A stretch of 64,000 nt of DNA from a virus: the UHGV virus genome UHGV-1550212, one strand, 5' to 3'. Below are positions 28,702-61,737 of this stretch, piece after piece. Within the stretch, counting starts at the first letter, position 1, and every line of letters starts with the position of its first letter. Below the pieces are notes generated by a model. That model made no database searches. It was not told where the DNA came from and was given only the letters and a program-made list of their open reading frames with translations. Both the position numbers and the translations under genes were made by a program.

Positions 28702-28735
28702 GCAAATATATTTTTGTTTGTATATGTACATAAAA

Positions 28736-28765
28736 GAGCAAGTTCTCAATGTGGAGAACTTGCTC
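28736..28765 (-). terminator. Hairpin (12-bp stem gagcaagttctc / gagaacttgctc, loop aatgtg)
   Basis: Perfect inverted repeat downstream of the tRNA/non-coding region on the minus strand. Confidence 0.4.
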
Positions 28766-29159
28766 AGCTGACCTGTTGCCAGGTGAAAGCGTGGTGCAGC
28801 ACCTTGTGCTGCAATGGCTATGCTGCCATCGCCATAACGGGCTGAGCATTGCCCAGCATCATTACACGACCAGCTGCATTAAGCGTACGCTTTGCTTTGT
28901 TGAAAAATTTGCCAGTTATCTGGTATCTGCACATCTATTCAAGCGACCTACTATGCAATCAAATGCCTGTCGAGCCCAATGTTTGAGCAGTTGTTTGTCA
29001 GATGCTCAGCTGACTGCAGTCTTTCTGAGTGTATCAAGTTCAGCGATTCTGCATCTTTGCTAAATGGCAATAGTTCAGGTGGACTCGCCGAGAATCGAAC
29101 TCGGGTCTTACATAGCGCATCCTTGACTTGGTCCTGTAAACAGGGTTGTCAACATGCAT
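28766..29159 (-). ncRNA. Candidate structured non-coding RNA region downstream of the tRNA cluster, including a tRNA-like 3' half at about 29075-29105
   Basis: About 390 nt with no credible ORF, more GC-rich than surroundings, internal repeats (gctcagctgac twice) and a T-arm/acceptor-like CCGAGTTCGATTCTCGGCGAGTCCACC for which I could not find a pairing 5' acceptor strand. Confidence 0.25.
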
Positions 29160-29230
29160 TGCAATACGACAGGACTCGAACCTGCGACCTCGGATTGGAC
29201 GTCCGCGCTCTTACCGCTGAGCTACGTATT
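29160..29230 (-). tRNA. tRNA-Gly(UCC)-like, atypical (G at position 33, G1:G72 mismatch); possibly a pseudo-tRNA
   Basis: Minus strand GAATACG-TA-GCTCAGCGGTAAGAGC-GCGGA-CGTCCAA-TCCGA-GGTC-GCAGG-TTCGAGT-CCTGT-CGTATTG; canonical D and T arms, anticodon TCC. Confidence 0.5.
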
Positions 29231-29321
29231 CTTATCAATTGACTGCACTGCAATGCAATCAATCGTGCCAATGATATTTGACGCATAATTGCAGTTATGC
29301 GTAACAATTCAAATGTCATTG

Positions 29322-29394
29322 AGCCAACTGCAGGAGTCGAACCTGTAACCTGCTGATTACAAATCAGCTGCTCTGCCAATTGAGCTAAGTTGGC
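29322..29394 (-). tRNA. tRNA-Thr(UGU)
   Basis: GCCAACT-TA-GCTC-AATTGGCA-GAGC-A-GCTGA-TTTGTAA-TCAGC-AGGTT-ACAGG-TTCGACT-CCTGC-AGTTGGC-T; acceptor stem 7/7 paired. Confidence 0.8.
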
Positions 29395-29476
29395 ATAAAG
29401 TCGTTGGGCCATTGCAACCCAAACCTATCATCTTTGTCTAACCAAAGATGCAAGTGTTCTCTTACACCACGACTTG

Positions 29477-29548
29477 TAGCCGAACTTGGAGTCGAACCAA
29501 GCTTTCGAGAATGAAAATCTCGCGTCCTAACCGATAGACGAAACGGCC
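29477..29548 (-). tRNA. tRNA-Glu(UUC)
   Basis: Anticodon arm CGAGA-TTTTCAT-TCTCG, T arm CTTGG-TTCGACT-CCAAG, D loop with GG; acceptor stem has two mismatches at its base, so ends are +/- 2 nt. Confidence 0.65.
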
Positions 29549-29731
29549 AAGAGCAGTTCAAGTCTGCAGCATTGAACTGCGGAAACAATGCCTGTACGGG
29601 CAGCAAATTGTGCAGATACAGCGACATTGCAAAATCACACCGAACCAAGTTTGTGGCTCTTCTGTCTCATAAAAACAAGTAATCATTACACTTGGCACCA
29701 ATGATTCTGATGTAAAAATCGGTGTGTTATG

Positions 29732-29816
29732 CGGAGAGTAAGGGATTCGAACCCCTGGTACGTTGCCGTACAGTGGTTTTCAAGACCACCGCCATCGACC
29801 GCTCGGCCAACTCTCC
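29732..29816 (-). tRNA. tRNA-Ser(UGA), long variable arm
   Basis: GGAGAGT ... GTGGT-CTTGAAA-ACCAC, variable arm TGTACGGCAACGTACCA, T arm AGGGG-TTCGAAT-CCCTT, acceptor 3' ACTCTCC perfectly paired. Confidence 0.85.
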
Positions 29817-30010
29817 ATAAAACATTGCATAAGCATTCTTATCTCTTGATGAGACCAAGTAGCTAATTTGGCAAGTTTGTTATATCTATCGTGACTGTTG
29901 CAGTTTGTTTGTCACTCAATACACAAAACTTTCGAACATTCATTGACAGCACTGCAATATCGCTTTTTAAGCTTAGCCATCAATGTATTTATGCAATGTA
30001 TAACAATTCG

Positions 30011-30092
30011 TAGCCAAACCGGGACTTGAACCCAGACTCCTAATGGAACAACATTTTGAGTGTTGCGTGTCTACCAATTCCACCATTTGGCC
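30011..30092 (-). tRNA. tRNA-Leu(CAA), long variable arm
   Basis: Anticodon arm CAACA-CTCAAAA-TGTTG, variable arm about 13 nt, T arm CTGGG-TTCAAGT-CCCGG, acceptor GGCCAAA/TTTGGCT. Confidence 0.8.
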
Positions 30093-30182
30093 ATTTACAA
30101 ATGCAATCTATTTCACAACTGTTTGCATTTGCATTGTTTAACACTAAAAATATGATTCATCTAATCAAAAACCAGAGAATTG

Positions 30183-30256
30183 TAGGGTAGACAGGACTCA
30201 AACCTGCGACCACGTGGTCCCAAACCACGCATTCTAATCAACTGAACTACTACCCT
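30183..30256 (-). tRNA. tRNA-Pro(UGG)
   Basis: AGGGTAG-TA-GTTC-AGTTGATTA-GAAT-G-CGTGG-TTTGGGA-CCACG-TGGTC-GCAGG-TTTGAGT-CCTGT-CTACCCT-A. Confidence 0.85.
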
Positions 30257-30262
30257 AAGTAG

Positions 30263-30334
30263 TTGAACCGTCTGGACTCGAACCAGAAATGGCTGAACCA
30301 AAATCAGCTGTGTTACCGATTACACCACGATTCA
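30263..30334 (-). tRNA. tRNA-Gln(UUG)
   Basis: TGAATCG-TG-GTGT-AATCGGTA-ACAC-A-GCTGA-TTTTGGT-TCAGC-CATT-TCTGG-TTCGAGT-CCAGA-CGGTTCA-A. Confidence 0.85.
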
Positions 30335-37218: not shown

Positions 37219-37473
37219 CTAAAATGTTAACTGTAATGACTTGATATTGCTGCATTCGATTTTTAACATGGCCAACTTGTCATGTGCAGCCATTGCGTCA
37301 TATTTGATGTTTGCAATTTCGAGCTTTTGTGCAATTTTGTATGCAGTGGCAGCATCAGTAGATATGCAGATGCAATTGCCAATGACTATATTTGCTGCAT
37401 CTGTTATGTTAACTTTGCATGCATTATCATTGTTATCAATGACTTCGATGCATTTGATTGAGTTAAAGTCCAT
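37219..37473 (-). CDS. Hypothetical small protein (84 aa)
   Basis: ORF with promoter-like motif 37526-37554 upstream. Confidence 0.4.
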   Translation of the reverse strand: MDFNSIKCIEVIDNNDNACKVNITDAANIVIGNCICISTDAATAYKIAQKLEIANIKYDAMAAHDKLAMLKIECSNIKSLQLTF

Positions 37474-37525
37474 ATTGCAGAGGTTTAGTATATTTGACTC
37501 TATATTATTTATAGATTAATACTAC

Positions 37526-37554
37526 ACACTTGCAGATTTTGCACTTAATTGATA
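37526..37554 (-). promoter_or_regulatory. Promoter-like motif (sense GTGCAAAATCTGCAAGTGTGTAGTATTAAT)
   Basis: Recurrent motif in the divergent intergenic region. Confidence 0.4.
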
Positions 37555-37644
37555 AATAATTTGTAAACATTTTCACAAACTTTTAACAGCTCTTTCGCTT
37601 ATGAAAACTACTCAACTCTGGTTTGAACGCCAGCAGTCAATCGC

Positions 37645-37651
37645 GGGGGGG
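37645..37651. repeat. Homopolymeric G7 tract 27 nt upstream of the plus-strand gene at 37678
   Basis: caatcgcgggggggctcttc in an otherwise AT-rich intergenic region. Confidence 0.8.
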
Positions 37652-37677
37652 CTCTTCGTGCTCCTGATTACATAGAT

Positions 37678-38370
37678 GTGCGGTTTACGCTCGTAGATGA
37701 TATGAGCATACATTGTGCATATATGCCAAACATATATGTGTTTGCTGATGGCAATGAGTATGCAATATCTCCAATAGGTTCACAATCACTTGATTATGAC
37801 GGCTCATGTATTGTACGTATTACCAAGTCAGACTGGATTGAAATGTTTGGCGCTGGTGTTACACAAGGCAGACTTAAATTTGGCTATGGTACAAATGAGC
37901 TTGAATTTTGTGAATTGATAAGCACTGCAACTGCTGAAGTCAAATTCGTTATTGGTTATGAGCAAAACCAGTCTGTCACTGCAACATTTAGTGATTTGCT
38001 GCATAATCCACTTGTCGCAACAAACAACAATTCTGCACAAGCAACAATTACATATACATTTAGTCATGCGACATTTAGAACAGCAGCATTTACGATTATC
38101 GGTAATGTGACATTTATTCCAGGCGGTGATGTAAGTAAAACAGCTATAATTCTTGCGCCTAATTATAGTATAACAATTAAGTACACTACGTCATCAACGC
38201 CAAAACTATTTGAGCATTCAATGACATTTGAGCGTAACAATGAAATGCTTGAGTATGTTGGCACTGAAGTAGACAGACATGCGTATTGTCAAATGAGACG
38301 TAGAACTACGGGCTCAACTGTATATTGTCATGTGTATATTGATGATAGCATGCTTAATATGATGGATTGA
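37678..38370 (+). CDS. Hypothetical protein (230 aa), one of only two plus-strand genes
   Basis: ORF begins with GTG at 37678 (ATG alternative at 37702); followed by a strong hairpin. Confidence 0.5.
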   Translation: MRFTLVDDMSIHCAYMPNIYVFADGNEYAISPIGSQSLDYDGSCIVRITKSDWIEMFGAGVTQGRLKFGYGTNELEFCELISTATAEVKFVIGYEQNQSVTATFSDLLHNPLVATNNNSAQATITYTFSHATFRTAAFTIIGNVTFIPGGDVSKTAIILAPNYSITIKYTTSSTPKLFEHSMTFERNNEMLEYVGTEVDRHAYCQMRRRTTGSTVYCHVYIDDSMLNMMD

Positions 38371-38385
38371 TAGTTGTAATATTGC

Positions 38386-38430
38386 GCAAAAAGAAAGCCG
38401 AACTGAATTTCAGTTCGGCTTTCTTTTTGC
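38386..38430. terminator. Perfect 21-bp-stem hairpin with flanking A/T runs; bidirectional terminator between convergent genes
   Basis: gcaaaaagaaagccgaactga / att / tcagttcggctttctttttgc. Confidence 0.7.
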
Positions 38431-38446
38431 ATACGCTTATGCTATG

Positions 38447-41400
38447 TTAGAACAGAGCAATGATGTTGTCGACAAACATAAAGCATGCATGCAGCAATTC
38501 AGCTGTCGGCATCATCTCATATGCTTTGCCATCATACATGAATCGCACAGTGACAATGGGTGACACTTCATCTTTGAATGCAAGCACAGGAACATCTACA
38601 CCTGCAGTCAATTGCACTTCAACATCCTTGTCAGCTGCTACATCTTTAGCAATCACTGTAATATCTCGACAACGACCAGCAGCTACTGCATATCTAACAT
38701 TTGTCAATGTAGCAGACATGTCAGCAAGAGCTTGCATGATTTGTTGCTGAGTAAATTGCTCAACTGACTTCTTTGCAGCCTTGACAGCTTCGATATCTTG
38801 TGTGTTTGCAAGAATCAATGCTACCACTGCAGGGTCAGAAGTAGTCCACCAACGACCATCAATTGCAAGCCACAGTCGATTGCCATTGACGTCAATTGCA
38901 TATGCATATTGAGTGTTTGGCGCCAATGCGACTTTTCGAGTGTTCTTTAAGAACTCTGCCGCATCAGGAGCCGCAACAATGTTCTTGACAAATGACGGCA
39001 GCATTTCAGCTTCAAATGTTTGTGTAGCTTCAAAGACACCGCCATGTGCATCGTCATCAATTCTGCCTGCAAAGCGTTTGCAGATTTGAATGATTGTAGC
39101 CATGCCTACCGTTGAAACGACTTGACGTTTCATTGCAGGCATTTGCAGAGGCATTGTATCTTGCGCAATGTACAATGATGTCGTATTAATAGTGTCAAGT
39201 ACTCGTGCAATGTCTGCAGTATCAACAATTACAAACCAGTCGCCGTCATGGCAGACAATAAGTTGCTTGCTGTCATTTGCATATGTCAGCAATACTGCAA
39301 TGTCATTTTTGATTGAGATTGCAGGAATCCATGCTTGTTGCAGAGGTAAGTCAAGATTTGGTGTGCCGCATGGATAAAGCGCAGATGGCTGCATAATTGA
39401 GCGGCAATCAAAACCTATTGAACTTACAAGCTGCAGAACTTCGCCACGAATGCAAGCATTACTTTGATTCTGTGTCATGTCATATGCAAGCCAACTGCAA
39501 ATTGCTTTGATTGATGACACTGGAAATGCTACGCCAATTGTGCTGTATGCAATCTTGCCGTCTGCTGACAATGACTCATCAACTGCAATGCCAGCATCAT
39601 TGAACAATGACATATCAATTGAACAATGGAATTCGCCACCAGGCATTGGACCTGCAGCAATGCCATAGCCAGGACCAAGTGACAGCCATTCTTTCATTGC
39701 ATCTGAATTGTATGACGAGAACTTGTACAACACGTATGACTTATGCGGGTCACTAACTGACTTGCGAATCTCCATCTTGGCGCCTGCTTTCTTTGCAATT
39801 GCTTTAATGTTATCGGCGTGCTTCTTTGCCTCAGACTTATCAAATTTGCCTTCATCAAGTTGAGCAATCTTGCCAAGCGCATAAGCAGTCCATGCAATTG
39901 ACAATTGATTCAGCGCGCCAACTTCTGACCACGACTTTTCTGCAAACCATGAGCCAAGACCAGATTTGTCAAGAGTTTCTTTGCGTTCAGCTTTTGTTGC
40001 AGCATCCCACCACTTGCCTGTTGCAGGCAACACAACGTCTTTGATTTGCTCCTTGCGAAGCTCATTGACACCGATTTTGCCCTCATGAACATGCGCATTT
40101 GCATGATATGCTCTAAGAGCAGCCAATGCAGCATCATATGAGTCATAGTCTTGCGGCCAGAATTCCCCATTCTTGCCAATGATGCCCCATACGCCCTTTG
40201 ACTTTTCTTGTATGACAGAATCTTTGTCACCGGCAGCTTCATTGACAAATGCTGTGTTAAGATACGCAATGACATGCTGAAGCTCTTTGTCATCTGCAGA
40301 CTCATTGACATTCTTAGCGTAATCACCAAGAATTGATTCAACTTTGCCACGCAAATTGCTTGGCATATCATCAAGGTCAAGATTGCCATACTTCGTGACT
40401 TCTGGTTGAGACAATCCAAGCAATTTCAACACCTTATCACGGTACTTGTTTGCGAGCTTCTTCCAAATCCAGCGGAATGTTACAGCGCCAATCAGAAATT
40501 TGATGAGGCCCTCATCAAGTACATGCTGTTCACGCAAATATGACGTAATGCATGAACGTTGACCATCAGTCAAGTCAACCCACATTTTATCAAGCAATAT
40601 TGAATCTGGGTTGCTTGCAATGCCAGCACCACTGCGGTTGTACACATTCATTCTGTCAATTGCTGGTGTTGCGTCATTGTCCCACCAAGCTTGTGCATAT
40701 GAACATCCAGCAGGATTTGAGATTGCCTCATTAATGTACATGACATTGAAGATTTCGCAAAGACGCTTGCGGCATTCATGTGACATAACTTGCCATTGTT
40801 CGGCAATTTTGTCTTCTGACCACTGCAGCAACATGTCTGCAAATTCTTTACCTGCGCATTGCTCAACTACACCATGTTTTGAACGCCAATAATTGTCAGG
40901 CTCAATCTGCGCAATTGCATGAACAAATGAAGTCAGATTGTATGACGCAGATTCGCAAATGCAATGCTGTTCAATGTAGCTACGAACAGCAAGTGCAGTG
41001 TCTTCCGGCAAGTTGCTATATGGTGACTCATAGATGTTTGCTTGCTGATTGAGCATATGTGGAGCAACTTCTGCAATGATTTGCTTGCGAACATTCAATG
41101 GCCATGCATTCCATGAAGATTCTACAGATTCATCAAGATGCATGCCAATTGCATCCATAACTGCATCAGCATCTTTGCCCAACAGTTCGTCAAACAATTT
41201 GTCTACTACTGCAGTGTCATATCGCAAATTTGGCTGAGCTTTTGCAAGAGCATTCATCATTGCTTTGCGTTCTTGTTTTGACGCATTGTTCCATGTGCCA
41301 GCATACAATTCTGCTGTCGCGCTTTCACAGACAATATCTGCAGCAGCATATGCTTGCTTCATAATGTCCATGAAGATTGACTTCATTTTTGGATGCATCA

Positions 41401-41653
41401 CATGATACTTTTCATTGTAGATGTCAAGTACGCCATAAACATCTTTCAATGGTCGAATGCTTTCTGATGAGCCGAATGATGGCTTCAAAATTGAATTGCA
41501 TACACGTTCAACGGTGCCACGCATAAACTTGACATCACTTCGCTTGTCACTGATAGACATAAATGCATCAATGACAGACTTGATGGTGTCATCTGCAGCT
41601 TCATTAACAAAGCCTACTGGTCGACCGCCAAACTTGTTTGTTTGTGTTGTCAT
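38447..41653 (-). CDS. Large hypothetical protein (1068 aa)
   Basis: Uninterrupted ORF; no catalytic motif recognised by eye. Confidence 0.6.
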   Translation of the reverse strand: MTTQTNKFGGRPVGFVNEAADDTIKSVIDAFMSISDKRSDVKFMRGTVERVCNSILKPSFGSSESIRPLKDVYGVLDIYNEKYHVMHPKMKSIFMDIMKQAYAAADIVCESATAELYAGTWNNASKQERKAMMNALAKAQPNLRYDTAVVDKLFDELLGKDADAVMDAIGMHLDESVESSWNAWPLNVRKQIIAEVAPHMLNQQANIYESPYSNLPEDTALAVRSYIEQHCICESASYNLTSFVHAIAQIEPDNYWRSKHGVVEQCAGKEFADMLLQWSEDKIAEQWQVMSHECRKRLCEIFNVMYINEAISNPAGCSYAQAWWDNDATPAIDRMNVYNRSGAGIASNPDSILLDKMWVDLTDGQRSCITSYLREQHVLDEGLIKFLIGAVTFRWIWKKLANKYRDKVLKLLGLSQPEVTKYGNLDLDDMPSNLRGKVESILGDYAKNVNESADDKELQHVIAYLNTAFVNEAAGDKDSVIQEKSKGVWGIIGKNGEFWPQDYDSYDAALAALRAYHANAHVHEGKIGVNELRKEQIKDVVLPATGKWWDAATKAERKETLDKSGLGSWFAEKSWSEVGALNQLSIAWTAYALGKIAQLDEGKFDKSEAKKHADNIKAIAKKAGAKMEIRKSVSDPHKSYVLYKFSSYNSDAMKEWLSLGPGYGIAAGPMPGGEFHCSIDMSLFNDAGIAVDESLSADGKIAYSTIGVAFPVSSIKAICSWLAYDMTQNQSNACIRGEVLQLVSSIGFDCRSIMQPSALYPCGTPNLDLPLQQAWIPAISIKNDIAVLLTYANDSKQLIVCHDGDWFVIVDTADIARVLDTINTTSLYIAQDTMPLQMPAMKRQVVSTVGMATIIQICKRFAGRIDDDAHGGVFEATQTFEAEMLPSFVKNIVAAPDAAEFLKNTRKVALAPNTQYAYAIDVNGNRLWLAIDGRWWTTSDPAVVALILANTQDIEAVKAAKKSVEQFTQQQIMQALADMSATLTNVRYAVAAGRCRDITVIAKDVAADKDVEVQLTAGVDVPVLAFKDEVSPIVTVRFMYDGKAYEMMPTAELLHACFMFVDNIIALF

Positions 41654-41712
41654 ATATCAACTATTTTGATTGTCAATCAATTGATTTGTTTGTTATATGT
41701 ATGCAACAATGC

Positions 41713-41748
41713 AAAATGAACCTGCAAATTTCTTCGCAGGTTCATTTT
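41713..41748 (-). terminator. Hairpin (13-bp stem aaaatgaacctgc / gcaggttcatttt) downstream of the reductase gene
   Basis: Inverted repeat followed on the sense strand by a T-rich run. Confidence 0.5.
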
Positions 41749-41766: not shown

Positions 41767-44700
41767 TCAATTACATGCTGAATGTCCGCAGTTGGTGCAT
41801 CGAACACAGCCATCAAACTTGACCATGTCACCGCCGCATTCAGGACACTTTGCATACATCTTTGAGCCATCTTGAATATGCAGTTTCAATGCGCGCCCAA
41901 TTGCTTTGCAGAATGTTCCGACAGATGCAAAGCTTTTTGCAGTTTGGTCGACAATTTCGCCAAGGTCAATGCCATTGCGAAGCATCGTTGAGTACAGTCG
42001 AGTAATTGTTTGCTGCTCGTCTGAACCAAGACGTTCTGAGATATTATCATAGTGCTGCAAGAATGACAAATTATCACCAAGCTTGTAGTGCTTCTTATCA
42101 GTCTTTGTGATTGTCGTTTGTTCAATGCCTTGCAACTTGTCGAATTCATCTTTGTCAAGTTCAAATGCAAAGATTTCATAAGGTCGACCGTCATCACAGC
42201 CTACAAGAATACACCACTTGCGCTTATACACTGACACGCAATACACTGCAGCAGGCAATACTGGTTTTCGTTTTGAGCGATGACCAGATTGCAAGATGTG
42301 CGACTTGTCTTTTGACTGCTTGTCATCTTTTACGAGAACACCTGCACGTGAGCCATCTCGATAAATTGTGCAGCCTTTGCAGCCAGATTTCCATGCAGTC
42401 AGATAAATTTCACGAACAAGCTCTTTTGTTGCAGAGTTTGGAATGTTGACCGTTACAGAAATTGACGAGTCAATGTATTTTTGCAATGCACCTTGCAATT
42501 TCACCTTGCCAATCCAGTCAACATCTTCAGTAGTTGCCTTGTAGTATGGTGATTGAATAAGCAATTCATCAATGACTGCTTGCGGAGCATTTGACAACCA
42601 AGCTTTGATGCGAGACATTTCTGCTTCTGACCATTCAATGCCAGTATCTTTGACAAGAGTAAATTTGCCATCGCCAAGCTGCACTCGTTTACAAATCCAC
42701 TGCATCAACGGATAATGAACTACAGCGTATTCAATGAACTTGTCACCAGTAGTCTCATCAATGAAGTTGATGTCGGCCTCATTATCAACTGCAGTTGGCT
42801 TACGACGACGTTTATGTAGTGGCATAAATACGGGCTCAATACCAGACGTTGTCTGAGTCATCAAAGCTGTAGTGCCTGTTGGTGCAATTGTGGTCGTGTT
42901 AATGTTTCGACGGCCAAATTGCTGATAAGTTTTGATGTGCTCATCATCAATCAGTTCAGATAGCATACGCTGGATGAACTTTGATTGCACATCTGTGTCA
43001 TAGTCAAATATTGCAAATGAGCCACGAATCTTTGCCAAGTCAATTGACGCTTCATAAGTCGCCTTTACAAGCCATTGTTGCATAGTGACTGCGAAGTCAA
43101 TTGACTCCTGCGAGCCATAACGCAAGCCAAGCATCGCCATTGCATCGCCAAGCGCAAGGAAGCCCATGCCATATCGACGAGTGTTTGTCAGTTTATCATA
43201 AACTTTGTGCCACAAGTCAAGTTCAGTCTTTTTGATGTCAAAGTCTTCTTTATCTGACCGAACCTTTGCAATGATTCGTTGCACTGCTTCAATTTCAAGC
43301 TGCACAAGGTCATCCATGATGACTGCACAGTCATATGTATCTTTGTAGAATGTCTCAAAGTCAAATGATGCATCAGCAGTCCAAGGATTAAGCACATATG
43401 CAGTCAAATTGCGATGCGACAAAATGCAGCTTGCATATGCAGCGAGAGGCTGTTCACCGCAATTTAGTGTATTGACTACTTGCTTGTCATTGACAGCAAT
43501 AAAGAAATTGTGGAAGTCTTCTACTGTGCCATTGTACACATCTGCTTTGTTCATGTGACGTGTTGCAACGACTTTGACAATTGCATCACCAGTAGTGTCA
43601 ATGTCTGCATATTTGCTGCAGTCACCTAACGCTGCGCAAGCATCACAGCAATATGCTTGTTCACGATTGTCATAAGAAACTTCGAATTCTTTACCACAGC
43701 ACTCGCATTGTTTGATAACTGTGTTTCGTTCTGTTTTTACAAGCTCGTCAGTCTTCAATGCAATTGATAGCTTATCTGCGCTTGGCATATCAATTGCCCA
43801 CAATGAGTCATTTGTTGCAAGGTCAATTGCATTCTTGAAATCGCCATTAGCAAGCCTGAACTCATGATTTGCTGTGCAATTGATGACATGGCCGTCATCA
43901 AGCACAATTTGAATGATTTGCGCATTATGTGCAGTCAATCTGGGTCGACGCATTGTGCGCACAACGAGCTTGCCATTAGAGTCAAGACAATATACTGGAA
44001 TGTCTTCACCACTATCAGCAAGCTCTTTGAATGTCTTCAAACCTGAGCCATCAGCAACAAGTACTTTTGTGTCACCTGTGAAGCATGGATTTGTTGAGCG
44101 CTCTTCATACATTTTGCCATATGCTTTCGAGTTCGACTCTTCCATGATACGGTCCCAGAAGAACACGCCGGGTTCTGCAGATGCCCATACGTTATCAACA
44201 ATTTTGTCAAACAATGCTTTTGCATCTGATGTCTTATGCAGCTCTTGGCCATTAGAGCCACGCCAAACATGCTCAAACTGTTGTTCTGCAAGCACTGCAC
44301 GCATAAATGCATCAGTAAGCTTGATTGAAATGTTTGCGCCTGTGATTTTCGTCAAGTCCTTTTTTGCATCAATGAACTTATCTGCGTCAGGATGCTCAAT
44401 TGACAATGACAACATCAATGCGCCACGCCTGCCATTTTGTGCAACTTCTTTTGTTGATGTTGAAAAACGTTCCATAAATGACACTACACCAGAAGTTGTA
44501 ATAGCACTGTTATGCACTTCTACGTCTTCTGGACGAATGTGCGACAAATCATGACCAACGCCACCACGACGCTTCATCAACTGAACTTGCTCTTCATCTG
44601 TTTTGAAGATGCCGCCATATGAATCTGCGTCATTGCCAATTACATAGCAATTTGACATTGACGTGTAACCGCCAAGACCAATACCAGCCATTGGAGAACC

Positions 44701-44988
44701 ACCAAGCACAAACCGCTTAAAAGGCTCAAGTAAATATGCAAGTCGTTCTTTTGACAATACACGTTTGCCTGTCTGTTCTTCAAATTGTGATTCGATGCGG
44801 TCAAATTCATTGACCCAGCGCTCATGCATATCAGACAATGAGTGTTCATACAAATTGTCTTTGTCATGATGCAAGTATTTTGACATGCATATGTCAGCAG
44901 CCATTGAATCGCCTGTAAATTCATGCGTCAGTGTAGTGTGCACTTCAGCATATTCAGGCGACCCAATTTGAATGGGATGTTTTGTCAT
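41767..44988 (-). CDS. nrdJ: Ribonucleotide reductase, class II-like (NrdJ-type) catalytic chain, interrupted by an intein
   Basis: RRGALMLSLSIEHPDADKFIDAK signature; catalytic motif split as ...ERSTNP | intein | CGEQPLAAY, giving NPCGEQPL after excision; C-terminal zinc ribbon CPECGG ... CVRCTNCGHSAC. Start at MTKHPIQ (ATG 44988). Confidence 0.75.
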   Translation of the reverse strand: MTKHPIQIGSPEYAEVHTTLTHEFTGDSMAADICMSKYLHHDKDNLYEHSLSDMHERWVNEFDRIESQFEEQTGKRVLSKERLAYLLEPFKRFVLGGSPMAGIGLGGYTSMSNCYVIGNDADSYGGIFKTDEEQVQLMKRRGGVGHDLSHIRPEDVEVHNSAITTSGVVSFMERFSTSTKEVAQNGRRGALMLSLSIEHPDADKFIDAKKDLTKITGANISIKLTDAFMRAVLAEQQFEHVWRGSNGQELHKTSDAKALFDKIVDNVWASAEPGVFFWDRIMEESNSKAYGKMYEERSTNPCFTGDTKVLVADGSGLKTFKELADSGEDIPVYCLDSNGKLVVRTMRRPRLTAHNAQIIQIVLDDGHVINCTANHEFRLANGDFKNAIDLATNDSLWAIDMPSADKLSIALKTDELVKTERNTVIKQCECCGKEFEVSYDNREQAYCCDACAALGDCSKYADIDTTGDAIVKVVATRHMNKADVYNGTVEDFHNFFIAVNDKQVVNTLNCGEQPLAAYASCILSHRNLTAYVLNPWTADASFDFETFYKDTYDCAVIMDDLVQLEIEAVQRIIAKVRSDKEDFDIKKTELDLWHKVYDKLTNTRRYGMGFLALGDAMAMLGLRYGSQESIDFAVTMQQWLVKATYEASIDLAKIRGSFAIFDYDTDVQSKFIQRMLSELIDDEHIKTYQQFGRRNINTTTIAPTGTTALMTQTTSGIEPVFMPLHKRRRKPTAVDNEADINFIDETTGDKFIEYAVVHYPLMQWICKRVQLGDGKFTLVKDTGIEWSEAEMSRIKAWLSNAPQAVIDELLIQSPYYKATTEDVDWIGKVKLQGALQKYIDSSISVTVNIPNSATKELVREIYLTAWKSGCKGCTIYRDGSRAGVLVKDDKQSKDKSHILQSGHRSKRKPVLPAAVYCVSVYKRKWCILVGCDDGRPYEIFAFELDKDEFDKLQGIEQTTITKTDKKHYKLGDNLSFLQHYDNISERLGSDEQQTITRLYSTMLRNGIDLGEIVDQTAKSFASVGTFCKAIGRALKLHIQDGSKMYAKCPECGGDMVKFDGCVRCTNCGHSACN
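43462..44085 (-). mobile_element. Intein (208 aa) inserted at the catalytic Cys of the reductase
   Basis: Starts CFTGDTKVLV (block A), block B TANHEF, block F DVYNGTVEDFHNFFIAV, ends ...VVNTLN followed by Cys +1; middle has a small Cys cluster (CECCGK ... CCDAC ... C), no LAGLIDADG motif seen. Confidence 0.65.
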
Positions 44989-45029
44989 TGTAACAGTGCA
45001 TTTAAGTGTTTTAACTGTTTTATGTATAA

Positions 45030-45057
45030 ATTGTACAACAATGGGCAAAATTTTGCA
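45030..45057 (-). promoter_or_regulatory. Promoter-like motif (sense TGATGCAAAATTTTGCCCATTGTTGTACAAT)
   Basis: About 40 nt upstream of the reductase ATG; its TGCAAA element lies inside the left arm of the hairpin at 45055-45108. Confidence 0.45.
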
Positions 45058-50455: not shown

Positions 50456-51130
50456 TTATTTTTGAATGTCTGCAAGTTCTGCTGCAATTCTATTGTATGC
50501 TAATATGTGCTTAATTGCGTCATCAAGCAGCTTGTTAAATTCAAGATACTGCTGCAGCACTTTGTCATTCTGCAATGACTGCTCAAGCGCAGCATAATCA
50601 CCTGCAAACGGGCGATTCATTGACAGACCAAAGTTCTTCGCGCATTTAGCATAAAAAGCATTGTACTCTGCAGCATCAATCGGTGTCGCGTCATGAGCAT
50701 TAAGCGCACTTTCACTGAGCAATGGGATTGTAAGTTTTCTGCAACGAGTAAACTCATCTTTGTCGACATACAGCACAGAACAACGAACGACATGGTCTTC
50801 TGCATTCATGCCGCCAGTCAACAAATCCATGTCCCAATCGAAGCAAATGTTGTAGATGTACAGCATCACAGTTCGATGTTTTTTGTAGACAAATTTCCAG
50901 TATCGAGACTTCTTGCATATATCTTTGATATGCTGCAAGTCATGCATAAATTTGTCATACGATATCGCATCAAAGCGAGGCAATGATTTGTTGTCAATGA
51001 ATGCGTTTGCTGCATCTGCACAACGTTTGAATTCTGCTTGATGCATATTTAGCTCTTCTGTGCGCTTTGCTACAAGTGCTTCATATTCTGCTTTTGCAAG
51101 TTCAAGTCTTGCTTCATACAAACTTTGCAT
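50456..51130 (-). CDS. Hypothetical protein (224 aa)
   Basis: ORF; no motif recognised. Confidence 0.5.
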   Translation of the reverse strand: MQSLYEARLELAKAEYEALVAKRTEELNMHQAEFKRCADAANAFIDNKSLPRFDAISYDKFMHDLQHIKDICKKSRYWKFVYKKHRTVMLYIYNICFDWDMDLLTGGMNAEDHVVRCSVLYVDKDEFTRCRKLTIPLLSESALNAHDATPIDAAEYNAFYAKCAKNFGLSMNRPFAGDYAALEQSLQNDKVLQQYLEFNKLLDDAIKHILAYNRIAAELADIQK

Positions 51131-54897: not shown

Positions 54898-55470
54898 TTA
54901 AAATTTGGATAGACTCGTAGTATCAAGCGATGCAATTGAATCAATGCGCAAAGAATCTGCTATAGGTGCGCAATCATCAATTGGGTGACTTGCAGGCTTA
55001 ACTTTGAGCATATACATTCTGCAGTTGCCAATATCTATAAGGGAACCAGAACGTGTCATATAATCACAGCCCAAAATGCCAACGACTTCATGACCAAGTG
55101 CTTTGCTAAGCTGAACTAAAATAGGCGAAATGTCATCAATAAACATGTCCAGCTCTACAGAGCCATTTGCGATAGTAATGTCTGCATCTATTGCATGAGA
55201 TACTTGAAGAGCCCCTGTGACATATGATAGTCGCTTAACTGAACGCTCTTTGCCAACCATGTCATGAGTAGCAACAAATGTGCTATCAATCAATGACAAT
55301 GACGCGCCAGTATCAAGCAAAAGCCATGCATCGACACCATTGACATTTGCATGTACAAATGGCAGGCTCTTCAAAACAATCGGTGACTGTGATTGCTGCA
55401 ATGCTTCATTGCACATTGTCAGCGTCATAATCGCAAGTAGCGATATAAGAAACAATTTGAATGCTTTCAT
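54898..55470 (-). CDS. Secreted or lipid-anchored retropepsin-like aspartic protease
   Basis: N-terminal signal-like MKAFKLFLISLLAIMTLTMC followed by the aspartyl-protease motif AWLLLDTGASLSLID. Confidence 0.55.
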   Translation of the reverse strand: MKAFKLFLISLLAIMTLTMCNEALQQSQSPIVLKSLPFVHANVNGVDAWLLLDTGASLSLIDSTFVATHDMVGKERSVKRLSYVTGALQVSHAIDADITIANGSVELDMFIDDISPILVQLSKALGHEVVGILGCDYMTRSGSLIDIGNCRMYMLKVKPASHPIDDCAPIADSLRIDSIASLDTTSLSKF

Positions 55471-55474
55471 AAGG

Positions 55475-57232
55475 CTACTCTGCTTTTGTTGCTTGCATCA
55501 GTTCAGCAAAGCTTACAGTGTAAGCATCTTCACCAACAGTCACATATGCAGCATCAACATTTGAGTCATTGCCTGTGTATGCAACCAAGGTGCCTGCTGG
55601 AATTTCTACACCGTCAATTGTTAGCATCGAATTGACAAGCTTGTATGTCTTGTTATCTTCGAAGTTCTCATTGACATATGCAGCAGCAATCATTGTTGAA
55701 CGTTTACGAGATTCATTGACAAAGCTTGCGCCAACAAGTTCTGACAGCTTCTTCTTTGTTGCTGCAGAGCATTTGTCATATGCAATGTCAATTGCGAGGT
55801 CTACATCACCAAGTTCCTTTGCAATGAGTTCATCAATCTGAGACAGCTTCTTGTCATCTTTGACAGCGACAAAATTCATTGCAAACTTGCGAGCGTTGTC
55901 TGACAATGATTCATCAATGTTCCACTGTTTCATCAATGTCTGCTTCAACACCTTGTCAAGTTCTGACCAGTCCTTATCTGCAAGAGTAGTTGCATCAAAG
56001 TCTTCATTGCTGAACTGCTTCAGCACTTTGACTTTGTCATCATGTGACAATGCTGACCACTTGTTTGCAGCGTCTTCAGCAGATTCAAGCAGAGGCTTGA
56101 TTGCATCTTTGAGTTCTTGCGGCCAAGTTTCAGGCGCTTTGAGCAGCATCTCAGATGAGTTGTACTCAAGCATGTCTGTCATGATTGCAAGCTTGACATT
56201 GTTAGCTTTCTCTTCAGGTGACAGAGCTTTGAATTTTTCAGCCCAGTCTTCAGATTCAGTCACGATTGATGCAGGCTTTGCAAAACCAGCAACAAAAACG
56301 AGCTTGTACATGATGTTCGTCATGAATGAGCAAGCTGCATCGATATCTGACTGAGTTGCTGCAGATTGAGCATCACGAATGTTGAGCAATGCCTGACGAA
56401 GAGACATAATGCCTACAACAGGGTCAGACCATGTCAATACAACTGAACTATCGATTGTGATGCCCTTGTCAAATCGCATATTTTCTGCAATGCGGTCAGC
56501 AAGTTCAGGCAGTTCAGTGTAGTACTGCTCAAGCGCTGCATGTGCAGCAGGAATTGAAACTTTTGCAGCATCAAATGCGTTGTTGATGTGCATAACATGC
56601 GCAGTTTGAATTGACTGCATCAACATCGACACTACTGCAGATTCTGTTGCAACATCATCTGTTGCAGCTTCATTAACAAATGACGCCATTGCATTTTGCA
56701 GCATGTATTGATGGTCTCGTACTGGCAACTCAACAATTTCAAAGCCTTCAAGAGACTTTGGCGAATCAGTTGCTGAACCTGCTTCAAGACACTTCTTTGA
56801 TGCATTGTCAATGACAAACCACATCTTTTGTGCTTTGAGTGCAATGTAAGTCTTGTCTTTTGATTGCTGAACAGTCATGTTGTCAAGAGCCAACGCACTG
56901 ATTGGCAAATTCTTGACTGCTGACTTGTCAAGTGCTTCATTGACTGCTACATTGTCATCACTCATTAACTGAGTATTTGCAGCAAATGTTGCAGAATCAA
57001 TGCTAAGCTCTTTGCCATCAGGCATAGAGAACTTAACTGCATCTGCAACATCAAGCACTTGCACCATGGCGCCTGCTTCGACTTTGTCATCACCAACAGC
57101 GAACTCAGTTACAACCTGATATGCCTTGTTAGCTTCAACAGTTTCAACAGACTCCATAATGAACTTTGCTGTACTGCAAGAGATTTTGTGCTTTTTCATG
57201 TTCATGTATGAATTTGAGTGTTTGTTGTTCAT
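55475..57232 (-). CDS. Hypothetical acidic protein (585 aa), possibly virion-associated given its position near the capsid gene
   Basis: Long ORF; preceded by three tandem promoter-like repeats. Confidence 0.55.
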   Translation of the reverse strand: MNNKHSNSYMNMKKHKISCSTAKFIMESVETVEANKAYQVVTEFAVGDDKVEAGAMVQVLDVADAVKFSMPDGKELSIDSATFAANTQLMSDDNVAVNEALDKSAVKNLPISALALDNMTVQQSKDKTYIALKAQKMWFVIDNASKKCLEAGSATDSPKSLEGFEIVELPVRDHQYMLQNAMASFVNEAATDDVATESAVVSMLMQSIQTAHVMHINNAFDAAKVSIPAAHAALEQYYTELPELADRIAENMRFDKGITIDSSVVLTWSDPVVGIMSLRQALLNIRDAQSAATQSDIDAACSFMTNIMYKLVFVAGFAKPASIVTESEDWAEKFKALSPEEKANNVKLAIMTDMLEYNSSEMLLKAPETWPQELKDAIKPLLESAEDAANKWSALSHDDKVKVLKQFSNEDFDATTLADKDWSELDKVLKQTLMKQWNIDESLSDNARKFAMNFVAVKDDKKLSQIDELIAKELGDVDLAIDIAYDKCSAATKKKLSELVGASFVNESRKRSTMIAAAYVNENFEDNKTYKLVNSMLTIDGVEIPAGTLVAYTGNDSNVDAAYVTVGEDAYTVSFAELMQATKAE

Positions 57233-57482: not shown

Positions 57483-58565
57483 TCATTGTTGTTTATGCCA
57501 GCCATATGATGCCTGACCAGCATCATACACTTCTACGAAGCCATGGTCGTACATAAAATCTTCATTACGAGTGCCCTTGCCCCCATTAGTGCCAAGAATA
57601 CGGTCTGCGCCATGCATAAGCAGCATATTATTTGTGACATGTTGCTTTGTCAGCATATTGAACCAGTGTTTGCTATATGACAAGCCAAGACCATCAAAGC
57701 CCAGCTTTGTGTACACACCACCGTCAAACTTGCTTAAATCACAATATGATAACACAGATTCAGGGTCATATGTCTTGATAAAGTGCTTAAAGATTCGTTC
57801 AGCACCACCAACAACTTTGGTTGCTGCACAAAGACGTAGCAATTCATATTGATAGCGCTTATTGTATCGTGGACGACCAAATGTCATAAGTTGATGAATG
57901 ACATAACCACCAAGCAACTCAAGTGGATGACCTTCAATCAACGCAAGATTGATAAAATTGCCTGAGCACTTGCCTTGCAAATGATGTTCAATCAAAAATT
58001 GATTTGCAGTATACTTGTCAATTTCAACAACTTTAAGCTTGCGAGCATATACAATCTTTGATTTGTCTACGATTTGATGCTTGATGTGATTGATAACTTT
58101 CTTGGCGTCATCCCAGTCCCACACATGAATGCAATGAAAGCCTGCTGATTTGGCGATGTCTGTTTTCTTTGCATGAATATCACAAGGCAAATGCGAATCT
58201 TTTGCATCATGCATAAACAGATGTTCAAATGAATGTGTGCTGTTATGTGAAAATGCAGGATTGATGTTAATGACAATATTGTCATGTCGAAAATCGAAGA
58301 CTTCATCGCCAATGACAAAGTTGCGCTCAAAATTTATACCGACATGTTTGAGTAACACTTGATGCCACACATCTTTATAGGCTGATTCAAGCTTGCTTAG
58401 CTCATCACAGTTTGCAATGTTTTTGTAACGTTGAATAGCAGCATCAAAGTCAAGATTGACTTCAGCGTAGTCTGCATTTTTATCGTAGTGAAATTTTGAG
58501 CTCATGTGTATAATTTTGTATGAGATTATTGTACAACATGCAAATGCATGTTGCATTTGATGCAA
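57483..58565 (-). CDS. Homing-endonuclease-like protein, paralog 3 of 5 (nuclease-like domain N-terminal, different downstream module)
   Basis: DNIVININPAFSHN ... GFHCIHVWDWDD near the N-terminus; C-terminal GFVEVYDAG shared with the other paralogs; middle region with ANQFLIEHHLQG. Confidence 0.55.
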   Translation of the reverse strand: MHQMQHAFACCTIISYKIIHMSSKFHYDKNADYAEVNLDFDAAIQRYKNIANCDELSKLESAYKDVWHQVLLKHVGINFERNFVIGDEVFDFRHDNIVININPAFSHNSTHSFEHLFMHDAKDSHLPCDIHAKKTDIAKSAGFHCIHVWDWDDAKKVINHIKHQIVDKSKIVYARKLKVVEIDKYTANQFLIEHHLQGKCSGNFINLALIEGHPLELLGGYVIHQLMTFGRPRYNKRYQYELLRLCAATKVVGGAERIFKHFIKTYDPESVLSYCDLSKFDGGVYTKLGFDGLGLSYSKHWFNMLTKQHVTNNMLLMHGADRILGTNGGKGTRNEDFMYDHGFVEVYDAGQASYGWHKQQ

Positions 58566-60021: not shown

Positions 60022-61737
60022 TCAAATCCAGCCGTAGTCGCTGTGGATAGCGAAGGTGAGATAAGCCAACTCGGGATACATACCCGTCTCCGCGAGAGCG
60101 TAATCCGACTCAATCAGCAACTTAGGTGCTGCTGTACCCTCAGCGGTTAATTCCACACTTGATGCAAGGTCATATGGCATGAATACACATCCCTGGTTGA
60201 CATTCTCTACGTCAACGCCGTCAGCAGTCTTGTTCGTACGAAGAACGAGAACAGTGTTATCGTTCAGCGGCTGCTTAGGATTGCAATAGATTTTAATGCC
60301 AGCCAAGTCACCTGCATAATACAGGTTCTTGTTGTCCTGTACCAGCGTATTGTCAAGAGCTGCAACAAAGTTCTTCTGAGCCTTAATTGCAACCAAGGCA
60401 ATCGTATTGACCACAGCAGCATCACCAGCACCGAAACGCGACAGGTTGCCAATGATTGTCGAAGCAGCCAGGATACGAGTTGCGATACGAGCCTGACGGG
60501 TAATCTGGTTCTCAGCCGAGCTGTTCGATTCAGCGTTAGGAACCATGCCGAACTCAGCCGTGCGGTCTACACCCATCTTGTCAACGAATGCAGGAGCCTG
60601 GAATTCCGAGAATGCCTTGGCAGTCGAACCAGCGTAGCCAATGTACAAGTTCAGGTTGTAGCCCTGAGCAGCCAACAGCTGAGCATGTGTCGTAACACCA
60701 AGTGCACGCATGCGCTTCAGACCATTGTCGTTGATTGACTGCGTGATTTCATTCTGCATTGCATTCTTGATGATTGCAACTGCATCCAAACCGCGAGCAC
60801 GGAGGTCCTTAACCTGGCGACGAGTCAGAGCACCCCAAGTCTGGTACGTCTTAACTTCGATAGCCTTTGAGAAGGTGCGGAGCTCCAGCATGTTCGGGTT
60901 GCCAGCCTCAGCCTCAGAACGAGACATTGGATTGCCGTCAAGGTCATCCATTGCAGCGAAGCCGTGGATGTGTTCGTCACCAGCCGAAACCAGGTCGAAC
61001 ATAACCTCAGTCATGCCAGTCAGCATGTCAGTTACAGCACCTGTAGCGTCAACCGAGTAGATTTTCGATGCAGCCATTGCAACATCAGCCAACGACTTGT
61101 CAGGAGCAACAGTCATTGCGCCACCAGCGCCAACGGTATATACGCCTTCATTGCGAACTACGAGGTAGCCTGCAACACGCGATACCTGTACGAACGTTAC
61201 CTTGGCAGCAAGCTCACCAGCAGCTGAACCGCCGATGTACAGAACTTGACCCTTCTTGAGGCCATGAACCATTGTCTGCGAAGCAACATTGTACAACTCC
61301 TTCCACTTGATGAGGAAGTAGCGAGGACCCTTGGCTGCGTTCAACTTGCCACCACCATACACGTAGTCTACATAGTCCAGCTGAACCAGCGGGCTGTATA
61401 CAGGAATGGCCGGGAGCAGGTCGAACAGAATCGTGTTGGCTGCGATGTTCATGTTCAGAGCCAGAACATTGGCAGCTACATCGATTGAACCACGCTTACG
61501 CGACGGGTCATGGAACTGTGCTTGCGTACCTGGGTCAGCAGGGAAAGCGACCGGACCTACGCCATTGAGATTCTGCGAATACGTCGACTCAAACGACTCG
61601 TTCATATACTGAACGTTCTGAGCGATTGATGCGAGCAGATACTTCTTAGCGGGCGAAAGCTTGGAGTCAAACGACTCATCAAGAACAGGGCCCCACTTTT
61701 TCAGCAATGCATCAATCTGTGTACGTTTTGCGTTCAT
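60022..61737 (-). CDS. Major capsid protein (T4 gp23-like)
   Basis: N-terminus TQIDALLKKWGPVLDE versus T4 gp23 TKAELLNKWKPLLEGE; internal QVKDLRARGLDA versus AQDLRAVHGMDA; codon usage noticeably more GC-rich at third positions than neighbours. Confidence 0.8.
   Translation of the reverse strand: MNAKRTQIDALLKKWGPVLDESFDSKLSPAKKYLLASIAQNVQYMNESFESTYSQNLNGVGPVAFPADPGTQAQFHDPSRKRGSIDVAANVLALNMNIAANTILFDLLPAIPVYSPLVQLDYVDYVYGGGKLNAAKGPRYFLIKWKELYNVASQTMVHGLKKGQVLYIGGSAAGELAAKVTFVQVSRVAGYLVVRNEGVYTVGAGGAMTVAPDKSLADVAMAASKIYSVDATGAVTDMLTGMTEVMFDLVSAGDEHIHGFAAMDDLDGNPMSRSEAEAGNPNMLELRTFSKAIEVKTYQTWGALTRRQVKDLRARGLDAVAIIKNAMQNEITQSINDNGLKRMRALGVTTHAQLLAAQGYNLNLYIGYAGSTAKAFSEFQAPAFVDKMGVDRTAEFGMVPNAESNSSAENQITRQARIATRILAASTIIGNLSRFGAGDAAVVNTIALVAIKAQKNFVAALDNTLVQDNKNLYYAGDLAGIKIYCNPKQPLNDNTVLVLRTNKTADGVDVENVNQGCVFMPYDLASSVELTAEGTAAPKLLIESDYALAETGMYPELAYLTFAIHSDYGWI

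Follow-up and report, generated by a model that had tools for sequence, protein, structure and literature searches.

A 1068-residue mosaic phage protein that is probably a precursor cut by a T4 gp21-type prohead protease

The 64,000-nucleotide stretch of viral DNA analysed here (UHGV virus genome UHGV-1550212; the whole stretch is called the window) contains, at positions 38,447 to 41,653, a gene for a 1068-residue protein that a sequence-only reading had described as an orphan. The results indicated that the N-terminal two-thirds of this protein carries a dense series of putative prohead protease sites and that related proteins carry them as well. The gene and the elements that delimit it are the following.

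38447..41653, minus strand: complete coding sequence with ATG start, stop codon included; 1068 amino acids (aa), 118.4 kDa, isoelectric point (pI) 5.3
38386..38430, no strand assigned: downstream hairpin, a perfect 22-bp palindrome, -34.3 kcal/mol, z = -8.8
41713..41748, minus strand: upstream hairpin, terminator of the ribonucleotide reductase (RNR) gene, -24.5 kcal/mol, z = -6.1
41691..41701, minus strand: promoter-like 11-mer TACATATAACA, 37 nt upstream of the ATG of the 1068-aa gene

The open reading frame (ORF) of 1068 aa is a real gene under purifying selection, because synonymous changes dominate in comparison with L001, a 95%-identical ENA metagenome scaffold: the two copies show 108 synonymous and 33 non-synonymous codon differences, mostly at third positions, and the ratio of non-synonymous to synonymous substitution (dN/dS) is 0.08. 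Its start codon is backed by homologues with the matching N-terminus M..N(K/R)FGG.P. The identical protein has been recorded as a 'hypothetical protein' on a 176-kb contig, and its cluster at an identity of at least 90% holds 44 members from many samples. The ATG-initiated ORF on the minus strand and the strong hairpins on either side of it, both described in the sequence-only reading, were thus confirmed. Each hairpin has an A-run before it and a U-run after it, the pattern of a bidirectional terminator, and a simple terminator scan missed both. Since these two terminator-like hairpins flank the gene, it forms a transcription unit of its own. The hairpin at 38386-38430 is a bidirectional terminator that separates the gene from the convergent ORF 37678-38370 (plus strand), which encodes 230 aa and is without homologues. 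This ORF sits in a segment (37262-38386) just downstream of the 1068-aa gene that is a small replacement hot spot beside the palindromic terminator: in L001, otherwise 94-95% identical, it is swapped for unrelated sequence with a 142-aa gene on the other strand.

The window derives from a large, recurrent, approximately 176-kb uncultivated phage, its sister contigs measuring 175.6-181 kb; its host is probably a member of the Bacteroidota. The nearest cultured relatives, at 33-39% protein identity, are the Chryseobacterium phages MA9V-1/2, the Tenacibaculum phages PTm1/PTm5/pT24 and the Sphingomonas phage PAU; the relationship to the Lak megaphages is looser, at about 28-31%.

Exactly three exact copies of TACATATAACA were found in the window. 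All are intergenic and lie a short distance ahead of a gene, namely about 23 nt (large terminase, counted from its likely start), 19 nt (531-aa ORF 22427-24022) and 37 nt (1068-aa gene). By our own estimate, an exact 11-mer is expected about 0.03 times by chance in 128 kb. The capsid gene is preceded by TACATATTATA, a version of TACATATAACA with two mismatches, and a TACATAT core lies upstream of the orthologues of the 1068-aa gene in L002, L003 and L007. The three copies suggest that the gene is co-expressed with packaging and head genes. Another element (TTGTAGTAT-AATTATATA) stands before a different gene set. A second recurrent promoter-like element, TTGT(A/G)GTA(T/C)-A(A/T)T(A/T)-(A)TATA, lies upstream of eight or more genes, among them those starting at 9254, 16801, 21710, 27880, 37473, 45752, 52558 and 59674 (minus strand); it is of a class distinct from TACATATAACA and probably marks another temporal class.

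Searches of Pfam and PHROGs with the 1068-aa protein returned nothing significant, and their sub-threshold matches (Cas9_a, Vip3A_N and others; E above 0.008) were dismissed as noise. Megablast and tblastn against 50,697 phage genomes gave no match to the gene, and a word-indexed search of 5.8 billion clusters gave one 97% relative as its sole match. The word-indexed search with the alignment of the C-terminal domain found only P0009 and P0016, and with module B (see below) it found nothing; a PDB profile search with the C-terminal domain alignment gave no match, no related loci were found in IMG/VR with P0004 as the query, and self-BLAST revealed no internal repeats. An exhaustive phmmer search of 1.84 billion representatives, however, found 15 proteins, each of them matching separate pieces of the 1068-aa protein. 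The word orphan is therefore nearly right: it holds with respect to Pfam, PHROGs, the PDB and the 50,697 phages but not with respect to these 15 proteins, and the alignments indicate that the protein is modular and not a true orphan. Module borders were set by BLAST against the phmmer-found proteins and give the parts listed here, in which an arrow marks a predicted cut and pLDDT is the predicted local distance difference test score of a structure model.

41600..41653, minus strand: N-terminal leader, residues 1-18, MTTQTNKFGGRPVGFVNE↓A, with the first motif site at its end; a candidate for capsid/core targeting
39575..41599, minus strand: scaffold-like, mostly helical multi-module region, residues 19-693, with 11 further motif sites
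41129..41323, minus strand: module A, residues 111-175 (SATAELYAGTWNNASKQERK...MHLDE↓); BLAST matches to the N-termini of P0002, P0004, P0006 and P0008, 37-42% identity
40301..40510, minus strand: module B, residues 382-451 (GLIKFLIGAVTFRWIWKKL...NVNE↓); basic, pI 9.5; the best-conserved module; pLDDT 62-79
40082..40237, minus strand: module C, residues 473-524 (VIQEKSKGVWGIIGKNGEFWPQDYDS..ALRAYHANAHVHE↓; GKWGI...AYH); small beta-hairpin plus helix domain; pLDDT 76-80
38450..39574, minus strand: C-terminal domain, residues 694-1068, starting SLSADGK; shared with P0002, P0003, P0009 and P0016

A leader of the form M..N(K/R)FGG.P...FV(N/M)E↓(S/A) is common to the homologues P0002 and P0004-P0008, and module A directly follows the leader in homologues. 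Module C is also present in proteins of other phage lineages, including DUF5856 (Dps-like) ones. P0002 (837 aa) and P0004 (818 aa) are encoded at the same locus, in the order RNR, gene, few small genes, topoisomerase II subunit; their module sets differ, P0004 being without the C-terminal domain. The comparison indicates that the locus is kept in position yet mosaic between related phages. In L007 (a Logan SRR25477481 contig), the locus, at 168-2777, is split into two genes: P0008 (leader, modules A and B, others; 440 aa) stops, and a second ORF begins MSTNLNQDGSKSVIQKK... (module C) and runs into the C-terminal domain (P0003) past an apparent frameshift within module C. Either the gene is truly split or frameshifted in this contig, or the contig is misassembled.

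The sequence-only reading had found no recognisable motifs, a statement that did not survive closer inspection. Residues 1-693 contain 12 copies of [LIV]-x-E-[SAG], whereas 2.7 are expected, and none of 5000 shuffles reached this number. P3 is V, L or I at all 12 sites. The single copy in residues 694-1068 (0.75 expected) corresponds to chance, and no strict site is present there. In residues 19-693, the predicted cuts fall after E110, 175, 209, 234, 309, 381, 451, 472, 524, 601 and 693 and would give fragments of 21-92 aa (18-92 including the leader). The strict form, [LIV][NDCH]E[SAG], occurs 11 times in this protein. The 45 remaining ORFs with a length of 150 aa or more hold only 16 copies in total, including some in the N-terminus of the capsid protein and in a 585-aa protein described below. 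In the enzymes of the window (RNR, topoisomerase, ligase, terminase), the motif is at or below the chance level.

The homologues are rich in the same motif (observed versus expected: P0004, 16 vs 2.9; P0005, 7 vs 1.6; P0006, 6 vs 0.6; P0007, 9 vs 2.3; P0002, 8 vs 3.1), and the instances read in them include VNES, LDES, VNEA and VMES. In six of six homologues, the motif stands on either side of module B, although the interior of this module is only 29-38% identical, and module C ends in the motif in every member of the clade to which this phage, PAU, PTm1 and MA9V belong. The C-terminal domain starts right after a motif site in all five proteins, with the junctions VDE↓SLSADGK, IDE↓ALSEDGK, VNE↓SLSEDGS, MSKNYINE↓ALSTDGK and MQHYINE↓ALSQNGK; where it stands alone, it carries leaders of only 7-8 residues, MSKNYINE↓A and MQHYINE↓A. 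Proteins that share module C outside the clade are not enriched for [LIV]-x-E-[SAG]. P0010 and P0013, from other lineages, are multi-module proteins ending in DUF5856 in which module C is followed by FS[DE] rather than h-x-E (h, hydrophobic), and in both a KxFS[DE] linker, over-represented in P0010 (6 vs 0.6 expected), separates the modules. Because module C proteins outside the clade use KxFS[DE] and not the clade motif, the linker is lineage-specific; this suggests that P0010 and P0013 may be analogous polyproteins matched to a protease of other specificity.

In T4, the Peptidase_S77 serine protease gp21 cuts head proteins after the Glu of L/I-X-E, and the internal proteins carry N-terminal capsid-targeting leaders of 10-19 residues that end in an L/I-X-E site (PMC9026906, PMC10052503). 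In phiKZ and SPN3US, long propeptides with several redundant sites are removed by multiple cuts (PMC9026906, PMC10052503). The proteins of the present phage lineage that bear on such processing are the following.

60022..61737, minus strand: Gp23-family major capsid protein (PF07068, E 1.8e-10)
L009:2204-6154, after the portal gene: protease-scaffold fusion of 1316 aa, on the IMG/VR contig IMGVR_UViG_3300045988_149023, 98% identical, 10 kb past the window end
55475..57232, minus strand: second multi-site protein, 585 aa, with a DUF5856/Dps-like core (PF19174, phrog_858) and the leader ...AKFIME↓S

The N-terminal region of the capsid protein contains two motif sites, KKWGPVLDE21↓SFDS and NVQYMNE47↓SFES, and both are kept in PTm1, MA9V-2 and PAU at about 36% identity, the second PAU site having N at P1'; this protein was taken as the internal reference for the protease site. 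The 'prohead core scaffolding protein and protease' of PTm1 (ORF300, 564 aa) has 19-20 motif sites, whereas about 3 are expected, and the 'prohead core protein serine protease' of MA9V-2 (gp209, 1207 residues) has 17, whereas 5.9 are expected. In the 1316-aa fusion, the N-terminus (L009:2204 to about 2750) matches Peptidase_S77 (PF03420, E 3.9e-6) and the PTm1 protease (E 2.6e-19), the remaining approximately 1130 residues are scaffold-like, and 22 motif sites are found vs 5.7 expected (0/2000 shuffles). The genes that follow it encode a sheath-like protein (972 aa) and then a membrane-like protein of 249 aa with a long (PE)n repeat. In PAU, the protease and the scaffold are encoded by separate genes, and the N-termini of gp152 (scaffolding), gp153 and gp154 ('internal capsid protein') read MKT(L/I)..LYE↓A(KLNE↓A), much like the T4 leader, MKTYQEFIAE↓A. 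The description of the phage as T4-like is appropriate for the head module (Gp23-family capsid protein, S77 protease) but not otherwise, the nearest relatives being MA9V, PTm1, PAU and Lak.

The 585-aa protein has 8 motif copies (2.6 expected, z 3.5), and tblastn matched it to nothing in cultured phages. The prohead protease probably cuts it as a second substrate, which would make it a head-packaged ferritin/Dps-like protein. Two further products of the minus strand have a short N-terminal leader with a motif site and are candidate small internal head proteins: that of 50456-51130, whose MQSLYE↓ARLE... resembles the PAU leaders MKT..QLYE↓A, and that of 14807-15274, with MTQIKMGMVGSDAKLKAVKE↓S. 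Two other proteins were weighed as possible processing enzymes and dismissed. One, encoded by a 191-aa ORF located upstream of the capsid gene, is a baseplate-type protein. The other, the retroviral-type aspartyl protease at 54898-55470, was dismissed because its signal peptide is lipoprotein-like and its catalytic class does not fit post-Glu cleavage in a Gp23/S77 system. This 190-aa ORF (minus strand; PF13650, E 1.6e-6; signal sequence MKAFKLFLISLLAIMTLTMC) is unusual in a phage and lies directly downstream of the gene for the 585-aa protein.

The scaffold region of the fusion is built of short units, W..(L/A)(S/T)...(R/K)..(I/L), for example DWWYNASVADRNQLIEQIG, and units of this type are also found in the 1068-aa protein (GTWNNASKQERKAMMNALA, GKWWDAATKAERKETLDK). 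When a profile of 11 scaffold units was run over the 185 stop-to-stop ORFs of the window, the 1068-aa protein took the top rank (three units, E 0.0035) and the 585-aa ORF the second (E 0.0095), followed by an ORF at E 0.45; the 585-aa protein also matches scaffold residues 232-318 (E 0.001). BLAST aligned residues 174-228 of the 1068-aa protein with scaffold residues 808-860 (34% identity over 56 residues, E 0.008) and leader residues 11-28 with scaffold residues 1286-1303 (18 residues, 56% identical, E 0.08), and the leader heptapeptide PVGFVNE recurs unchanged at residues 1287-1293 of the protease-scaffold protein. When the unit profile was built from the homologues instead, it gave no significant match to the 1068-aa protein (E 2.5). 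These N-terminal likenesses are weak singly but consistent, and we regard them as suggestive and not decisive. Confident homology to a routine structural protein had been named as the finding that would refute the sequence-only reading; the N-terminal two-thirds does resemble scaffold modules, but weakly, at E of about 0.003-0.008.

This resemblance raises the possibility that the whole protein is an auxiliary scaffolding or core protein, which would serve head assembly (size determination, core nucleation) and then be degraded and expelled, leaving no lasting product, as T4 gp22, gp67 and gp68 are degraded and expelled at maturation. The shared units and module, the mostly helical nature of the N-terminal region and its scaffold-like number of sites fit such a role, as does a conserved family core that consists of the leader and modules A and B, P0004 lacking the C-terminal domain altogether. 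However, a scaffold region is already present in this phage as the approximately 1130-residue part of the protease fusion, and the C-terminal 375 residues of the 1068-aa protein are without a strict site. In addition, a C-terminal domain that stands alone behind a leader of 7-8 residues has the architecture of T4 and PAU internal proteins and not that of a scaffold, and the high mosaicism of the locus would be unusual for an essential assembly factor. We therefore consider a purely scaffolding role unlikely.

Structure prediction had been proposed in the sequence-only reading as a check; it was run, and it gave no fold match. The model of residues 1-693 is poor (pLDDT 44), a string of short helices in which only modules B and C reach 70-80. 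The C-terminal domain (pLDDT 67.5) is modelled as an alpha/beta domain with small beta-barrel subdomains; no fold or PDB match and no relatives of known function were found for it, and only a very weak fold resemblance (template modelling score below 0.25) was seen to jumbo-phage proteins with a 'KTSC/metallopeptidase-like N-terminal fusion domain'. Among 15 population variants, all 12 site glutamates are invariant, and the motif core differs between them only by V-to-I at P3 and A-to-T at P1'. Variable positions are more frequent in the C-terminal domain (95/375) than in the N-terminal region (66/693; Fisher P 3e-11). They cluster in residues 800-1068 (TINTT/AVDVA at 821-825 is one instance), the ω values of 0.06-0.22 indicating purifying selection; the variability of these last approximately 270 residues (window 38450-39250) was measured within the 90%-identity population. 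It could reflect interaction with a variable partner.

A different idea is that each module of 20-90 residues (A, B, C and others) is itself a small effector released in the capsid and delivered with the DNA, so that the locus would be a fast-shuffling library of host-directed proteins with a logic like that of polyvalent proteins. Positional orthologues do differ in the order and presence of modules, which have been shuffled, gained or lost, whereas the motif persists at the module edges; module C, a small domain predicted to fold (pLDDT about 78), turns up in unrelated phage proteins next to linkers specific to each lineage, and L007 has the locus in two genes. Against this, a function could be recognised for none of the modules, the model is of very low confidence over most of the region, the scaffold likeness explains the modules more simply, and the multi-site propeptides of phiKZ and SPN3US are mostly cleared from the head (PMC10052503). 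In our judgement, this idea is distinctly improbable. A broader version, which we hold to be somewhat less improbable but still unlikely, treats the prohead as a reaction chamber in which a 118-kDa mosaic would be cut into about a dozen small proteins and a 41-kDa domain, at least some of which (module C, the basic module B, the fast-varying C-terminal domain) would be delivered with the DNA as reshuffled early effectors. If this capsid-processed polyprotein existed, the scaffold-derived modules would be a general, evolvable packaging tag, and polyproteins of other lineages would use linkers matched to their own proteases, such as KxFS[DE].

Taken together, the data make it probable, in our view, that the gene encodes the precursor of a capsid-internal protein processed by a prohead protease of the T4 gp21 (Peptidase_S77) type. 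The gene is real, the motif is enriched in its product and kept at module edges, the lineage has an S77 protease, and its scaffold and capsid propeptide share the motif. From these observations we infer that the motif is a cleavage site, that the 1068-aa protein is a substrate and that it is located in the head. The gene would be transcribed as its own unit (terminator, TACATATAACA element, gene, terminator), probably alongside late genes such as the terminase. The 693-residue N-terminal part, made up of the 18-residue leader and short helical scaffold-like modules, would co-assemble with the scaffolding core and bring the protein into the prohead, where the protease would cut after the Glu of [LIV]-x-E↓[SAG] at 11-12 sites. 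The N-terminal part would thereby be reduced to fragments of 18-92 residues that leave the head or stay in it as internal peptides, and the site-free C-terminal domain, residues 694-1068, would be freed with the new N-terminus SLSADGK. This domain of about 375 residues would remain beside the DNA within the head, and its ejection into the host is conceivable. The sequence-only reading had offered an injected protein, an internal-head protein or an anti-defence factor; the internal-head part gains support from the protease motif, the scaffold similarity and the terminator-bounded transcription unit with an 11-mer that also precedes the terminase gene, while ejection of the C-terminal domain, any activity of it and an anti-defence role remain speculation because the domain has no informative relatives.

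Several points weigh against processing in the prohead. First, the scaffold similarity is weak (E 0.003-0.08) and rests on short units. Second, no S77 protease gene was found within the 64-kb window; the protease gene is known from the 98%-identical sister contig, and its PF03420 score of 26.9 bits lies just under the gathering threshold of 27. Third, neither a sequence search nor a profile search of the PDB linked the sites of the capsid protein to the known cleavage site of T4 gp23. Fourth, the conservation of motif positions in the population is not above background (P 0.31, 15 variants), and 10 of the 12 sites lie in coil or helix ends, as compared with a background of 72% (P 0.30, pLDDT-44 model), a test of accessibility that says nothing because so many residues lie in coil or helix ends and the model is poor. 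Moreover, since P0004 is without the C-terminal domain, 'cargo delivery' is not the sole role of the locus, and the phage is known solely from metagenomes. Finally, the gene lies between RNR and topoisomerase II, among genes of nucleotide metabolism and replication and about 20 kb from the capsid gene.

This neighbourhood, together with the fact that the motif is made of common residues, would suit a protein that is not part of the virion at all, in which h-x-E-[SAG] would be a helix cap or linker of a repetitive cytoplasmic protein with a role in DNA metabolism or host takeover. The order RNR, 1068-aa gene, topoisomerase II is also seen in orthologous loci, outside the head-assembly cluster of protease and capsid genes. 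However, T4 internal-protein genes are likewise scattered away from the head genes, sequence-unrelated modules share only this motif at their borders, and the motif is concentrated in gp21-type substrates (capsid propeptide, scaffold, internal-protein leaders) while remaining at the chance level in the enzymes of the window. A non-virion role is thus very improbable.

Some features of the surrounding genome were also noted. The window encodes a T4-type topoisomerase II, an NAD ligase, an intein-containing RNR and the large terminase. The class II-type RNR large subunit (41767-45048, minus strand) holds the intein (PF14890), and in the related contig L003 RNR is split over two adjacent genes (1125 + 430 aa). 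Rfam confirms all seven tRNAs of the window; in the segments 28727-29169 and 29161-30334 (both minus strand), ARAGORN calls a permuted transfer-messenger RNA (tmRNA) next to the tRNA cluster, a call that is probably false because Rfam supports the seven tRNAs but gives no tmRNA. Three homing-endonuclease-like genes (HNH / DUF7487; 57483-58565, 58613-59674 and 61826-63217, minus strand) flank the capsid gene and part it from the protease-scaffold gene, whereas the two adjoin in PTm1 and MA9V-2. The capsid gene region has a G+C content of 49%, as compared with about 40% elsewhere.

If the 1068-aa protein is a capsid-internal precursor, one of the largest unannotated genes of this phage becomes a testable prediction of a protein that is cut, of the positions and the enzyme, and of the product left in the head. 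The use of [LIV]-x-E↓[SAG] as the cleavage motif of the PAU/PTm1/MA9V/Lak-related clade would allow head-internal proteins to be predicted from sequence, and in the window it already flags the 585-aa DUF5856 protein and possibly a 224-aa protein. Should the scaffold-like modules direct packaging, they would represent a naturally occurring, longer counterpart of the T4 capsid-targeting sequence, which would bear on the loading and evolution of ejected phage proteins and on the engineering of protein delivery.

T4 and phiKZ/SPN3US have made the kind of protein proposed here familiar, whether it is described as a gp21-type substrate, an internal head protein or a protein with a multi-site propeptide. 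This family, however, is undescribed and restricted to uncultivated relatives of the PAU/PTm1/MA9V clade, and the literature examined does not report its combination of a T4-type motif, a mosaic, scaffold-like propeptide of 693 residues and a shuffled locus that keeps its position. One close parallel is with IPI, IPII, IPIII and Alt of T4: both phages have a Gp23-family capsid protein, an S77 protease and a post-Glu (L/I/V)-x-E motif (here read from the sequence), and both sets of proteins combine a short leader ending in a site (a predicted one here), a gene away from the head cluster, a variable locus and a mature C-terminal product without homology to anything else. In T4, Asp in place of the Glu before the cut prevents processing while leaving targeting intact. 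However, the T4 internal proteins have a leader of 10-19 residues, whereas a 693-residue multi-module region with 12 sites precedes the mature domain here; the leader of the 1068-aa protein is unlike MKTYQEFIAE of T4, which the leaders of PAU gp152-154, in the same clade, do resemble, and no sequence homology to T4 IPI/II/III, Alt, gp67 or gp68 was found (Pfam, PHROGs; tblastn, 50,697 phage genomes).

The inner-body and ejection proteins of phiKZ and SPN3US (protease gp175/gp245) likewise have a long N-terminal propeptide, redundant post-Glu sites and a C-terminal mature part, and these too are large phages with many unannotated head proteins (PMC10052503, PMC9026906). Their motif, however, is (S/A/G)-x-E, whereas P3 in the 1068-aa protein is L/I/V as in T4, and there is no sequence similarity; they belong to another clade, while the phage described here is PAU/PTm1/MA9V-like, with a T4-type capsid protein recognisable by Pfam. 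The protease-scaffold fusions of its own clade (PTm1 ORF300, MA9V-2 gp209, L009:2204-6154) share with the 1068-aa protein the motif, a similar density of sites, the W-units and PVGFVNE. Unlike them, the 1068-aa protein has no protease domain, is encoded about 20 kb from the head genes and carries a site-free alpha/beta domain of 375 residues. Polyvalent proteins (Iyer et al. 2017, PMC5512222) are likewise large, mosaic, presumably head-packaged and processed, and subject to fast module shuffling. The enzymatic and anti-restriction domains that define them (nucleases, ADP-ribosyltransferases, MuF, ArdC, metallopeptidase) were not detected in the 1068-aa protein with Pfam and PHROGs, and where polyvalent proteins have an in-built metallopeptidase, we propose that the 1068-aa protein would be processed by the prohead protease.

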